Part shown: positions 1 through 64,000 of the stretch, piece by piece
Layout of the letters: the number at the start of each line of letters is the position of its first letter
Numbering within the stretch: position 1 is the stretch's first letter
Position numbers: made by a program
DNA from: Truepera sp.
GTDB lineage: Bacteria > Deinococcota > Deinococci > Deinococcales > Trueperaceae
Reading direction: 5' to 3'
Assembly (NCBI GenBank): GCA_965218435.1
Contig: CBDCKW010000009.1
Location: forward strand, 1,632,001 to 1,696,000
Length of the DNA: 64,000 bases

Positions 1-3000
1 AGCCCGACCCCGCGCCGCCCATCGCGTCGTGCGCCAGCGTGCCGGTAAAGGTGCGGAGGAGGTCGAGGTCAACCAGTTCCGCAAGCGCGTCGTAGTAGGC
101 GCTGCGAATCTCGAGCGCCTCAACCGCGTGCTTTTTTTCGTCAAAGGTCTTGACGTCGTCCGGGCCGGTTTCCGCAACGCGGGCGCTTACGTCTCCGTAA
201 ATGTCTTGAGTCGCCGTGCCGCCATACGGCCCCTTGAGCTTAAAGCCGCTGTAGGGCGGCGGATTGTGCGACGCGGTGAGCATGACGCCGCCGCCGAGAG
301 CGAGGTGCTTGACGGCAAACGAAAGTGTGGGGGTCGGCAAGTACGCGTCTGCTAGAAGTACCCGAACGTCGTTGGCGGCAAAAACCTCAGCCACGCGCCG
401 CGCGAAGAGCGCCCCGTTAAACCGGGTGTCATAACCCACCGCGACGCTCGGCGTGCCTTGGTCGTGCAGATACGCGGCGTAAGCCTGCGCGACTCTCGAG
501 ACGTTCGTAAAAGTAAAACGTTCGCCGATAAGGTCACGCCAGCCGTCAGTGCCAAAAATCAGTGTGTCCATATATAGAGTCCTCTCGAGCTGCTAAGTTA
601 AAGCTGAACACCGCGCAGCGCGGGCAAGTTTTACGAGCATACCAAGCTGTAACAAAATAGTCAGGCCGGAAATACCTCGAGCTTTTGCTTGTTTATGGGG
701 AGCGCCGTGTGTCATGGTGAACAGGTGTCTGGTAAGCAAATCTTTAGCCCCATTGTTTTTAACCCTGTTGTCTTTAATCCTGTTGTCATCAAATACGGGG
801 GCAACGCGATGACCGACCCGCAACTGCGCCGCCAGATGGCCGCTGAAATCGCCCGCATCCCCGGCGCGGTCGTCGTACACGGGGGCGGGCCGTTTATCGG
901 GGCGGCGCTGGCAGCAGCTGGCTTAGAGAGCCGGTTTGTCCGGGGTTTACGGGTGACCGACACGGCGAGTTTACCTGTCATCGAGCGCACGCTGACCTTA
1001 CTCGGAAAAGAGCTGGCGCAGGCATTCGGGCGCGGCGTCGGCTTGACCGGGCGGGACGCAGGGCTGCTAGTGGCTGAGACGTTTGACGCGGCGCTCGGGC
1101 AGGTCGGTAAGGTGACGGCGGTCAACTATGAGTTACTCACAGGTTTTTTGGACTTGGGGCTGGTCCCGGTCGTCGCGTGTCTGGCGGTGGACGCTCGAGG
1201 CGACGCACTTAACGTCAATGCGGACGACGCTGCGGGTGCCGTCGCCGGGGCTTTAGGTGCGCCCATCATCTTTTTAAGCAATATCCCAGGCGTCTTGGAT
1301 GACCCGGCAGACCCGGACAGCCTAATCACCACCTTGCACGAAAAAGACATTCAGGCGCGGATCGAGGACGGACGTATTTCAGGGGGCATGATTCCTAAAG
1401 TCGAGGCGGCGCTGAGCGCACTTTCAGCCGGGGCTCCTTTTGCCATCATCGCGGACGGGCGCAAACCGGAAGACTTAGCGGCGACCCTTAAAGGAACATG
1501 TGGGACTCGAGTGATCAAATAGGGTGGTACGCTGGGCTGATGCAACCTCATGATGGCTAAAAACGTGTCGGCAGATACTCTGGTCGTCGGCTCGGGTCCG
1601 GCGGGGTTAGCAGCGGCGGCGCACCTGGGCGAGGCGGGGCTCCGCGTCGTCGGCGTCTCCCCCGACCCGGACGCGGCTTGGCCGAACACCTACGGCGTTT
1701 GGGTAGATGAGGTCGCGCCGCTCGGTTACGAACCTTTTTTGGCGCATGTTTGGAACGATACGGTGGGCGATTTCGGACAAGGCGAGGTTACGCTGGGGCG
1801 AACCTACGGACGGTTTAATAATTGCAAGTTACAAAAATATCTTTTAGCGCGGTGTGAAGCTGCTGGAGTTGTCTGGCAGCAGGGCCTTGTCGCGGCAGTT
1901 GAGCACAAAGTAAAAAGCTCGAGCCTCACCACTACGGGCGGCCACACATATTCAGCACGCCTTATCATTGACAGCAGCGGCCACTTTCCCAAACTCGTGT
2001 CACGTCCCGCTGGTGACCCTGCCTTTCAAACCGCCTACGGCGTATTGGGACGGTTTTCTGCGCCGCCGGTCAAACCGGGTCAGATGCTCCTGATGGACTT
2101 TCAAGACGATTTTTTAACTCCTGCCGAACGCAGCACACCAACCTTCCTCTACGCGATGGATTTGGGCAACGGGCTTTTTTTTGCTGAAGAGACCTCTTTA
2201 GCGCACCGGCCCGGTTTAGGGCTGGCGGTGCTGAAGGGGAGGCTCGAGCGCCGCTTAGCTCATTACGGTATTTGTATCACCGAAGTTTCGGAAGAAGAGC
2301 ACTGCCGCTTTCCGATGAACGTACCGCTGCCCGACCTGACGCAGCGCACCGTCGGGTTTGGCGGCGCAGCGAGCATGGTGCACCCGGCGTCCGGCTACCT
2401 GATGGCGTCTACGCTTCGGCGAGCACCGGAATTAGCGACAGCGGTCGCGCAGACTTTAGAACAGGGCGCTCCACCGGAGCAAGTAGCGGCGACGGCGTGG
2501 AGAGCACTTTGGCCTAAAGAGAGGGTACGGGCGCGTGAACTGTATCTGTTTGGGCTCGAGTCCCTGCTGACGTTAGACAGCGCCCAGCTTAAAGACTTTT
2601 TCGGTGCATTTTTTAACCTCTCCCCTGAGCTGTGGCAGGGTTATCTATCGGGTACACATGGTGCGGGCGGCGTTGCCAAGACCATGACTGCCATGTTTCA
2701 GCACGCCCCTAACAGCGTCCGCTTGCCGCTGCTTCGCGCGTCTTTCGGTCCGACGCGTACGCACCTCATCCGGGCGTTATGCTAACGAGGTTTTGGCCTA
2801 AGTTCTGACGTTAGGCCAAGCATCTAAAGCTCTGTATAGACGACCTGATCCATGTGATATGGACGAACGTCTCGAGGAGACGAACTCGGTATCGTACCCA
2901 TTATGACGACCATCCGCCAACGCGTCGTGGTAAATTACGAGTTTCCGGTGCATTTTACCCACGACCTTTTTTCCCTACAAAATCCGCTGCTGGCCCAAAC

Positions 3001-63000: not shown

Positions 63001-64000
63001 ATAACTTTGAAAAATCTCTTTATGCTTATTTTCTCTTTCGCTCTCAGAGAGCTGTACTTTATACTGACCTAAGACCCATTGAGAAAGTGCATAAATGCTT
63101 AGGCCACAATTTATTTCTATGTGGCTACCATTCAGTTGTTGCGTCAGCTTTTTAGTTGATTCGTACTCTAAAGTTACAGCTAGGGAGGGAAAGCCTTGTT
63201 CGCTATACGAAGCATGCGCATTTTTGAAATCTTCTTGCCCTTGGATTGCTTCTCTTATGAAATCCTTGCCAATTTCATCGTCGTAGGTTTCAAAATAGTC
63301 TAAAGGGTATTCTAGGGACAATGAGCTTTGTTCTTCTATAAACTCTTCCTGACTTTTTGATTGCCGTAAAAGCCTCAACAAGGTTCTCAAGGATTTAAGC
63401 CTTAACTCTTCAATATCAAAATCTCTTTTAGCGGCTTGAAATGCTTGGATCAAGATAATCTCTGGAAAAGTCCAGCGAACTGGTATTCGAGATAGCGCGA
63501 GAGTGTCAACATGCGACTTTCTATTTCTGTAACTTCTTTCGTCTTTCCTAACACCGTTAAGTAGTTCTATCAGTGTGATTACTGATGTATAACACTTGTC
63601 TCGATATGTTGGTGAATCGAGCTTACGACCAAGCTTACGAACCGTGCTCGTATCAAGATAGTGCATTTCTATAGGTTGCTTCACCTTATGTGTGCTTGCG
63701 CGAAAGCAGGTACATAAACTTTTTGTACTGCTTCAATAGCCCACAGAATCGCCTCGGGCGTCGCGGGTGAGGCCAGCTCAAGGCGTTCCGGCGCTTCGGT
63801 AGCAAACGCGGCAACCGCGTCACGAAGCGCCTCGCGGACGCTTAACGCGAGCATAAAGGGCGGCTCTCCAACTGCTTTGCTGCCGTAGATTACGCCGTCT
63901 TGGGCGGCGCGGGGCAGCAGGGTCACGTTAAACGTTTCAGGTACGTCGGCAATCGTCGGAATCTTATAAACGCTCGGCGCATTGGTCACAAAGCGTCCGG

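Follow-up and report, generated by a model that had tools for sequence, protein, structure and literature searches.

A polar array of ~50-bp sites facing a dif-like site at the chromosome terminus of Truepera and related genomes: a candidate replication fork trap

Genomic features of the terminus

The window analysed here, 64 kb of contig C9 of a Truepera sp. genome (G000), is right-replichore DNA between the seventh and eighth sites of an array surrounding the replication terminus (Table 1). No array site was matched within the window at up to three mismatches, the top profile score there being 5.6 bits; five KOPS-like words (RGGGGAGA) were present, all on the minus strand. An earlier note on this DNA had described eight sites on C9, four in plus followed by four in minus orientation, and their places and orientations were all reproduced, with one more site at C5 378414. 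As had been claimed, these sites stood far above background, scoring 46-69 bits forward and -7 to -26 bits reversed in leave-one-out analysis, against a best background of 6-12.5 bits. The cumulative GC-skew maximum, taken as the terminus, fell at 1455671 (1455670 in the earlier note), and both plasmid-borne recombinase fragments again had an array site just 3' of their ends (C5:378400 and C7:11870, the latter with a 6-bp centre). At C9:1313595, a weak site in the wrong orientation (23.1 bits) was dropped from the array because one of four permuted models did as well (23.2 bits).

Table 1. Coordinates of features on contig C9 and within the 64-kb window
Feature	Location	Strand	Basis or remark
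Array site 1	C9 1150150-1150200	+	Profile/pattern match (1150164)
Array site 2	C9 1442781-1442831	+	Profile/pattern match (1442795)
Array site 3	C9 1445275-1445325	+	Profile/pattern match (1445289)
Array site 4	C9 1446249-1446299	+	Profile/pattern match (1446263)
Array site 5	C9 1455391-1455441	-	Profile/pattern match (1455403)
Array site 6	C9 1469258-1469308	-	Profile/pattern match (1469270)
Array site 7	C9 1551951-1552001	-	Profile/pattern match (1551963)
Array site 8	C9 1721359-1721409	-	Profile/pattern match (1721371)
Tyrosine recombinase	C9 1451551-1452546	-	R-K-H-R-H-Y intact
dif-like site, 11-6-11	C9 1452580-1452607	-	Just upstream of recombinase gene
Degenerate dif copy	C9 ~1453660-1453687	-	Second, degenerate copy
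rex	C9 2446606-2447247	-	PF06971 match
FtsK gamma domain	C9 2581430-2581612	+	Domain match
KOPS-like word RGGGGAGA	Window 1656..1663	-	Points to dif-like site
KOPS-like word RGGGGAGA	Window 2619..2626	-	Points to dif-like site
KOPS-like word RGGGGAGA	Window 13568..13575	-	Points to dif-like site
KOPS-like word RGGGGAGA	Window 47219..47226	-	Points to dif-like site
KOPS-like word RGGGGAGA	Window 62521..62528	-	Points to dif-like site
Two-gene junction, without site here	Window 61987..62001		Relative L008 has ~1.4-kb extra segment bearing array site

Small blocks carried array sites in and out, gain and loss being seen among relatives, and the folC-folP site lay on the opposite replichore in G122 relative to G000 and G126, having moved through an inversion across dif. 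Two G000 sites and one G126 site had common flanks, a pattern that could reflect exchange. In a minor related strain, the segment that separates sites 2 and 3 was missing and 136 unseen letters stood there instead.

A single recombinase with its own dif-like site

The gene near the orientation switch encodes a protein with a tyrosine recombinase fold in which R-K-H-R-H-Y are all present, so that it is predicted from its residues to be catalytically intact. It belongs to a Deinococcota family with an additional N-terminal helical part, often with a single copy on each replicon (49 Deinococcus plasmid records), and in structure comparison its best matches were XerA, IntI4, Tn1549 Int and XerH. 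Orthology to XerC, XerD, XerS or XerA was rejected, as scores lay far under the NCBIfam cut-offs (77 vs 335, 61 vs 330, 50 vs 267 and 75 vs 220 bits, respectively). Upstream of the gene, 43 of 51 loci had an 11-6-11 site scoring at least 11 as a palindrome, a count without a shuffled control. Its arms differed widely by lineage, becoming GC-rich in G122 and G023. The dif arms of G000 were also found on plasmid C8, four relatives lost synteny with G000 at dif, and an islet lay between two copies of the site. RGGGGAGA words were concordant in orientation in 225 of 256 cases, with the strand switch at 1451778-1460298. Judged by this anatomy, the recombinase, the 11-6-11 site, FtsK and RGGGGAGA most likely act together to resolve chromosome dimers. 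Such a layer resembles XerS/difSL, XerH/difH and archaeal XerA in having one intact recombinase and an adjacent 11-6-11 terminus site, with FtsK-gamma and polar words, and differs from them in that the Deinococcota recombinase has been repeatedly replaced at the terminus and that the dif arms change fast. For D. radiodurans, passages of a May 2026 paper state that neither a canonical dif nor polarized KOPS had been identified (PMC13342612). Concrete candidate dif sites can now be given for all three families considered below, together with a KOPS-like word for G000 and precise sites for termination studies.

The orientation switch had been placed at the recombinase gene, and in 34 of 38 genomes the innermost sites did flank the gene; in G029, G030, G031 and G102 it lay outside the switch. 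In G102, a lone dif-like palindrome was situated inside the switch. The point of convergence is dif and not the recombinase gene. On dif regions the array profile reached at most 6.6 bits in 5/5 loci tested, and array sites neither matched dif arms nor co-varied with the site of the cognate recombinase. Recombinases at array centres were polyphyletic, with 11 label changes in a quick tree, at least 7 of them forced by well-supported branches; they were 26-50% identical and had unlike dif arms, with the array motif unchanged, and array-negative genera retained the same Xer and dif. Because of the separate dif, the polyphyletic recombinases, the displaced gene in four genomes and the low profile scores, we regard the array as independent of Xer.

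The earlier suggestion of a multi-site dif, in which each copy would be recombined by the neighbouring recombinase under FtsK orientation and differing spacers would limit exchange to sister copies, therefore did not survive: the recombinase has its own single 11-6-11 site, which the array profile does not recognise. In its favour are an intact recombinase between the innermost sites in most genomes and among the commonest genes within 700 bp of a site (16 genomes, three families), centres of 6-8 bp that resemble recombinase spacers, the strain missing the segment between sites 2 and 3, and the common flanks in G000 and G126. However, dif arms vary while the array consensus is constant, C8 carries dif arms, synteny breaks at dif, the central recombinases are polyphyletic, array-negative genera keep Xer and dif, and identical centres were not avoided within genomes (3/214 pairs, vs 15/9102 between genomes); we consider this reading very improbable. 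Nor is it any more probable, and perhaps slightly less so, that the recombinase occupies the array by a second mode of recognition and leaves it unrecombined, much as XerD in Bacillus subtilis unloads SMC at additional sites. The XerD precedent is described in parts of PMC11894783, some dif arms are similar to the outer bases of the half that faces the centre, and a site often lies just 3' of the gene, the G000 plasmids included; yet the motif does not change between recombinases that are 26-50% identical and have dissimilar dif arms, and dif regions score poorly with the array model. A truncated, catalytically dead Xer paralogue at C9:757270 was likewise rejected as the binder, being present in just 3/220 genomes and broken in the other two.

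Distribution and polarity of the array

In line with the earlier note, the pattern with one mismatch occurred in 22 of 128 family genomes, G000 included, against three matches for the reversed control. The motif proved far commoner than those 22 genomes, reaching 37/128 by later searches, and its presence in other genera and another family was borne out, with three families positive (37/128, 78/99 and 39/56 genomes). The array is spread order-wide, in Trueperaceae, Deinococcus-like and Thermus-like genomes; two of the three families were not in the training set of the array model, and a 2-mismatch pattern was too loose across the order and was not used. The model-negative genome G032 held a 36.6-bit array site. 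Sites were mostly missing from secondary replicons, with none near xer on 7/7 named plasmids.

All 76 contigs with both orientations (18 + 33 + 25 in the three families) had converging sites among the matches listed, and with a second profile 33/33 genomes converged, both as expected of a fork trap; against one, a weak site in G055 would be misoriented if the origin of that genome is at parS. Sites were enriched between convergent gene ends (43/167 vs 54/392, OR 2.2, p = 9e-4) and depleted between divergent starts (28/167 vs 109/392, OR 0.52, p = 0.005), a placement that also favours a fork trap and by which the array is not regulon-like. In tandem gene gaps there was no bias against transcription into the strong face (39 vs 57; background 100 vs 129; p = 0.61), which counts against a fork trap; no polar block of transcription was seen. 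Neighbouring genes had been thought otherwise different, which did not hold: smc recurred in 20 clustered genomes, and aspS and smpB recurred beside sites across families, aspS-adjacent sites being kept in all three. No shared candidate gene was found beside inner or outer array sites.

Ordinary regulator sites, or selfish repeats spreading from dif, could in principle acquire polarity as a by-product, as dif-spanning inversions preserve it automatically (the folC-folP site in G000/G126 vs G122) and sites come and go with small blocks. Against such an origin, which we find hardly credible, stand the lack of wrong-way sites among the matches listed for the 76 contigs, the grading of centre spacing by distance, the depletion in promoter gaps and the aspS-adjacent sites kept in three families.

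Site architecture and candidate binders

Each ~50-bp site had three conserved half-sites and can be read as a tandem pair of Rex-operator-like units, of which the stronger faces the centre; the predicted dimer-binding units are 26-28 bp apart, the outer one half-degenerate. Centre spacing shortened with distance from dif in two families, from 8 bp inside to 7 bp outside in family f2 (rho -0.57, n = 41) and from 8 to 6 bp in Meiothermus-like genera (rho -0.56, n = 39), where 7/7 sites more than 150 kb out had a 6-bp centre; both gradients fit a fork trap. A hairpin element, attC-like or RNA, was rejected, as the inverted arms showed no covariation (observed pairing close to expected in 137 sites) and an Rfam search over 59 kb matched a tRNA alone.

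Several binders were tried. Tus (PF05472) and RTP (PF02334) were not found in G000, with E. coli and B. subtilis controls matching their respective models, and an extra chromosomal ParB or Noc was rejected, the chromosomal ParB being single. A query for a DdrI orthologue (E 1e-45) found none in array-positive G055, G056, G108, G127, G009, G102 and g16, and found it in many array-negative genomes. Inner half-sites resemble parS halves, but parS occurred in 67/81 genomes, in both groups. Rex, a winged-helix redox sensor, was picked after these had failed and is the leading candidate, tentatively and at somewhat less than even odds, on a motif match and partly confounded conservation. The Rex operator is TTGTGAAW4TTCACAA (PMC2883068); the centre-facing unit had 2-5 mismatches to it in 134/137 sites (median 4); four core positions were conserved at 99-100%, the spacer was rich in A/T, and the inner half of the outer unit also matched. 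Layout and core bases resemble those of a Rex operator, whereas the array units are tandem, asymmetric, polar, terminus-located and outside promoters. Departures from the operator were consistent at positions 2, 17 and 18, the same layout also fits CRP-type dimers, which, like the median of 4 mismatches, counts against Rex, and free Rex operators were not in excess in G000 (9 vs 17 in the reversed control).

Rex occurred in 125/128 family genomes, and all 37 array-positive ones matched PF06971 (G104 weakly); Rex was found in array-negative genomes as well, so that its presence does not discriminate. Rex-minus-LigA identity was +14.8 in 16 array-positive vs +5.5 in 6 array-negative genera (p = 0.007), and G032, with its array site, keeps the Rex tail, both in favour of Rex; against it, the LigA control alone separated the two groups as well as Rex did, and the array is missing from genus g14 despite a conserved Rex and present in g13 and g5 despite a diverged one. 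It is doubtful, though conceivable, that Rex has been co-opted, two of its dimers sitting on the tandem asymmetric operators and together blocking passage in one direction, with spacing of 8, 7 or 6 bp tuning inner and outer sites. Termination around dif would then be redox-gated, because NADH releases Rex from DNA, and a metabolic regulator would have a second job in replication.

A possible third fork trap

Two layers can be told apart at the terminus, one a single-Xer/dif system accompanied by KOPS-like words, the other a polar array, distinct from it, whose sites face dif. We put at about one in two the probability that the array is a third, independent bacterial replication fork trap; its polarity is observed, and fork arrest is what it most likely serves. 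A fork from the origin would meet the weak half first and pass; one overshooting dif would meet the strong half first and stall, with outer copies backing up the inner sites. Consistent with a fork trap, the array lies opposite the DnaA-box cluster and parS on C9, whose arms differ by 87 kb, and the arithmetic midpoint, near 1409 kb, lies outside the 2-LL interval of the skew switch (1426.6-1460.7 kb); the offset could come from recent insertions, with C9 assumed to be circular. In G029, too, the point opposite parS falls within the array gap, xer being ~860 kb past the innermost minus site.

In RTP-Ter of Bacillus subtilis, each site pairs a weaker dimer-binding unit with a stronger one, the latter turned toward the blocked fork, a layout that the array sites are predicted to share; RTP-Ter units overlap, whereas those of the array are spaced apart. 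Like RTP-Ter, the array is a converging multi-site terminus array, and its binder would be a winged-helix dimer if it is Rex; unlike it, the sequence is unrelated, no RTP homologue was found in G000 and no binder gene lies beside an array site. Tus-Ter of Escherichia coli likewise has two opposed polar groups at the terminus, with outer back-ups hundreds of kilobases off, and differs in that array sites are ~50 bp with three conserved half-sites, that the inner gap is usually 1-40 kb and that Tus was not found in G000. Sections of a review describe Tus and RTP as confined to some Gammaproteobacteria and Bacillales, and the two chromosomal fork traps as thought independent in origin and rare (PMC7174701). 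If the reading is true, a third would exist, and in groups to which much-studied model organisms belong. A literature search, with comparative Rex-regulon predictions outside its scope, found no description of this array, and none of the terms looked for occurred in the main text of a Thermus Tn-seq paper.

The array may instead be a polar barrier or organiser for FtsK or SMC rather than the replisome, keeping FtsK from overshooting dif, or unloading or stopping SMC and defining a terminus domain, as MatP/matS or XerD/XDS do. In favour of this, the sites point to dif even in G102, whose recombinase gene lies elsewhere, smc recurs beside the locus, sites are mostly missing from secondary replicons, and innermost gaps of 1.2-1.8 kb (G242, G056, G027 and G108) suit a dif-centred function. 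Inner gaps of known fork traps are much wider, which counts against a fork trap. As in MatP/matS and XerD/XDS, repeated predicted protein-binding sites are confined to the terminus region; unlike these, the array has a strict polarity and dif as its point of convergence, and matS, being palindromic and not polar, counts against the parallel. FtsK is moreover already guided by polar RGGGGAGA, and machines coming from the origin would meet the weak half, the strong one being turned to the centre. Also in favour of this alternative, parts of two papers describe dedicated terminus systems that exclude condensin (PMC11894783) and SMC arm alignment that can follow dif, not ter (PMC13342612). We judge this alternative to be rather unlikely, if the most serious.

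If the array is a fork trap, it may explain the terminus zone that loads Thermus Argonaute. According to parts of 10.1101/869172, T. thermophilus Argonaute guides derive from a 39-kb terminus zone and the HB27 megaplasmid has a 25-kb Argonaute zone, and parts of PMC10269773 report Argonaute-guide peaks that mark Tus-stalled forks in E. coli, and none in a cyanobacterium without ter sites. On the HB27 megaplasmid, no array site was found in 160-232 kb, nor in the whole record by pattern or by model, the model having scored no candidates and lacking a positive control; the megaplasmid zone therefore does not need the array and counts against this indirect line of evidence for a fork trap. In three Thermus-like genomes, outer array spans were 33.6-37.4 kb.

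Array range and polarity

Truepera sp. (G000) had a genome of 4.8 Mb in nine contigs. Pattern and profile searches found no array sites in the window; as the window falls between sites 7 and 8, positions are given along the contig. The eight sites that the earlier note had reported on the chromosomal contig C9 (four forward, then four reverse), plus one on C5, were all recovered in place, with leave-one-out profile scores of 46 to 69 bits forward and negative scores when reversed, against a background of at most 12.5 bits. The GC-skew peak that it had set at the terminus was also reproduced. 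Origin marks comprised a cluster of DnaA boxes and two parS sites. The replichore arms measured 2015.7 versus 1928.9 kb, the midpoint being excluded by the skew switch; recent insertions could be an alternative cause of this offset. At the right end of the window, two adjoining genes are separated in a relative (L008) by an extra segment of ~1.4 kb with an array site and another gene, and the last genes of the window adjoin the terminus in two relatives.

The array is real and order-wide. A sequence model built from 63 Trueperaceae sites matched 37 of 128 Trueperaceae genomes, split cleanly by genus, as well as 78 of the 99 f2 genomes (E 0.01) and 39 of the 56 f4 genomes (E 0.05), f2 and f4 being families that we infer to be Deinococcaceae and Thermaceae, respectively. 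The claim that forward sites precede reverse sites and converge held, among the matches listed on shared contigs (single matches mostly omitted), on every contig with both orientations (18/18 Trueperaceae, 33/33 f2 and 25/25 f4), counts in which kin genomes are not independent; a further 54 (Trueperaceae) and 176 (f2) matches lay outside this typing. The unpublished G090 appears once in the family-genome tallies, as one of the 76 converging contigs and as genus g27 in the Rex/LigA comparison. A two-block profile (137 sites) gave convergence in 33/33 genomes, in regions chosen from earlier matches. Inversions spanning the array centre preserve polarity without selection. An array lacking any polar function seems highly improbable. 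No array sites were found around the recombinase genes of seven named plasmids. On G055 contig C1 (4.29 Mb), the distance between parS and the array centre is only 1.08 Mb, indicating extreme asymmetry or misassembly; one weak site would face the wrong way if that placement holds.

Features located in the G000 genome
Feature	Location	Strand	Remark
Tyrosine recombinase gene (xer)	C9:1451551-1452546	-	
dif-like site	C9:1452580-1452607		11-6-11 palindrome
GC-skew maximum	C9:1455671		
RGGGGAGA switch	C9:1451778-1460298		
DnaA-box cluster	near 3381.5 kb		origin mark
rex	2446606-2447247	-	candidate binder gene
Rex-operator-like palindrome	C9:2446580		just downstream of rex, ahead of next gene
Truncated recombinase paralogue	C9:757270-757983		catalytically dead
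Longer recombinase-family frame	C5:152086-153477		
dif-arm matches (examples)	C5:482518-488188; C5:532954-535256		
Phage-integrase-like fragment	C9:1665889-1666098 (window ~33890-34100)	-	broken, internal stop
Adjoining genes	window ~61987-62001		separated in L008
Genes adjoining terminus in two relatives	window ~58400-64000		

A separate, predicted Xer/dif system

The recombinase scored below all Xer cut-offs, and its three closest relatives were from Truepera or Trueperaceae. R193, H281, R284 and Y316 were invariant among 69 homologues, K217 and H307 were conserved in at least 90%, and the predicted structure was confident (pLDDT 92), with XerA, IntI4, Tn1549 Int and XerH the closest matches. 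Array-negative genera carried one 11-6-11 palindrome near the recombinase gene; array-positive genomes had such a candidate too, with arms differing per lineage, at most 1.1 kb upstream of the gene in 46 of 51 loci (uncontrolled palindrome score at least 11 in 43). Adjacency of gene and site is known from XerS and difSL. Plasmid C8 shares identical arms with the G000 chromosomal site but has a different spacer, a degenerate copy 1.1 kb from the chromosomal site brackets a low-GC gene, and alignments with four relatives break off at the site. The most polar frequent word, KOPS-like RGGGGAGA, was concordant in 225 of 256 occurrences, and FtsK-gamma is encoded. A single-Xer/dif anatomy, presumably active, is thus complete without the array, and the recombinase and its upstream site are a separate, predicted Xer/dif system of Deinococcota.

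The earlier note had proposed a fork trap or multi-site dif; in the latter, the array copies would serve as recombination sites. Since the recombinase has its own site, and the array motif is constant over recombinases that are polyphyletic (a quick tree of 76 rows requires 11 changes, of which 7 or more are forced) and 26-50% identical outside the closest relatives, multi-site dif is very unlikely; that the recombinase binds the array without recombining is also very unlikely. An array-negative clade adjoins G055, which has an array and shares the dif type of that clade. Placement of the recombinase at the orientation switch held in 34 of 38 genomes examined and failed in G029, G030 (reverse sites on another contig), G031 and G102, where it lies outside. 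As G102 has a perfect 11-6-11 palindrome and no recombinase between its innermost sites, and the point opposite parS in G029 falls in the array gap, the array faces dif. It is a layer separate from Xer/dif. Against full independence, a site frequently lies just beyond the 3' end of xer (also on G000 C5 and C7), a related strain present as a minor component is missing the stretch from site 2 to site 3, where 136 unseen letters stand instead, and two sites of G000 share flanks with one of G126 in an odd way.

Several further observations concern the recombinase family. C5 (685 kb) had 11 matches to the conserved dif arm versus 3 in the reversed control, and C9 had 15 versus 23; some C5 matches cluster around single genes and resemble pdif modules, here on a chromid. 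C8 (offset 10332) and C6 (offset 12981) repeat internally and are probably small plasmids assembled beyond their own length. A longer frame, whose N-terminal part resembles the sigma-70 region 4 helix-turn-helix, occurs on C5 and in L011, L015, L040 and L047. In L013 and L041 a small HNH and helix-turn-helix-like gene lies directly upstream of xer, which in L013 is split by a frameshift. Many genomes of array-negative genera (L024-L050) have two paralogues, each with a related 11-6-11 site of its own; the second gene is preceded by a half-site, and its full site lies 1-8 kb off. The truncated G000 paralogue, beside a restriction-subunit-like gene, was present in 3 of 220 genomes.

Site anatomy and a putative fork trap

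Each array site consists of an A-rich lead-in, TTCACRA, a variable centre, TYGTGAA (the most conserved half-site), an A/T stretch of four bases and WTCACWW, which is weaker. A hairpin was rejected because the arms show no covariation; from its sequence the site reads as two putative dimer-binding units at a distance of 26-28 bp, of which the stronger one points to dif. Among Trueperaceae sites the centre was 7 bp in 69 of 71; in f2 it was 8 bp in inner and 7 bp in outer sites (rho -0.57, p 9e-5, n=41), whereas sites of Meiothermus-like genera had inner centres of 8 bp and outer ones of 6 bp (rho -0.56, p 2e-4, n=39). By our own gene calls, 167 of 189 sites could be classed; these preferred gaps between converging genes and shunned diverging promoters, and tandem gaps showed no orientation bias. 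In Thermus-like loci (L079-L086), several sites start with KOPS-like GGGGAGA in the same orientation.

We consider a replication fork trap to have about an even chance of being correct. The sites lie in nested, opposed groups with the strong face toward the centre, form graded inner and outer classes and are placed outside promoters, all of which a fork trap modelled on the arrangement and anatomy of RTP sites predicts. The array is fork-trap-like by anatomy, but belongs to neither Tus-Ter nor RTP-Ter. A barrier of another kind, acting on FtsK or SMC, is less likely, though inner gaps as small as 1.2 kb and convergence on dif speak for it. For comparison, matS is symmetric.

In Thermus thermophilus HB27, Argonaute guides derive from a 39-kb terminus zone, for which the portions of text at hand name no ter sites (10.1101/869172). 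Three Thermus-like genomes each carried two sites per orientation (2+2), the innermost pair being 31-32.6 kb apart and the whole set spanning 33.6-37.4 kb, a likeness to the HB27 zone in size only and in other genomes; the 25-kb Argonaute zone of the HB27 megaplasmid held no array site. Neither array nor dif-like sites were found described in open-access text from PubMed Central and bioRxiv, subscription journals being outside this scope. As far as the accessible parts of these sources go, D. radiodurans FtsK was tested on E. coli dif (PMC9764985), a dif survey lacks the words Deinococcus and Thermus (PMC3025954), no canonical dif or polarized KOPS was identified in D. radiodurans (PMC13342612), and the sites are undescribed in PMC7174701, PMC10269773, PMC11894783, PMC11253593 and PMC4409726.

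Rex as a candidate binder

Tus, RTP, an extra ParB, DdrI and the dead Xer paralogue all failed as candidate binders. The centre-facing unit had 2-5 mismatches to the Rex operator, as given in the part of PMC2883068 available, in 134 of 137 sites, and fits it by majority at 14 of 18 positions, A/T spacer included. Of the 128 family genomes, 125 contain Rex, in almost every case as a single strong match, and the G000 protein, including its tail, is a homologue of the Thermus Rex of solved structure. Among genomes with a match, the alignment reached at least residue 212 in 34 of 36 array-positive versus 6 of 88 array-negative genomes, with 13 more negatives reaching 210-211; mean N-terminal identity was 0.86 (12 positives) versus 0.62 (15 negatives) in 27 aligned sequences. 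A LigA control separated the groups equally well, so most of the Rex difference is kinship. In genomes with LigA identity of at least 54%, Rex-minus-LigA identity was +14.8 (n=16 positive genera) versus +5.5 (n=6; p 0.007), with genera g14, g13 and g5 as exceptions. The Rex helix has diverged in g13, where the outer CAC was present in 0/20 sites versus 27/27 in f2; the outer CAC was also absent from g33 sites (0/3) despite conserved Rex. Among five model-negative genomes with the Rex tail, G032 had a site and the other four had none. Rex is a tentative prediction for the array binder, and a Rex-gated fork trap, the boldest reading, is doubtful.

Rex-operator-like palindromes lie near rex in G000 and at L177:2912. 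In Trueperaceae, LigA identity to the G028 query was either 54-68% or 40-46%; the band of lower values consisted almost entirely of array-negative genera and may reflect a replaced ligase.
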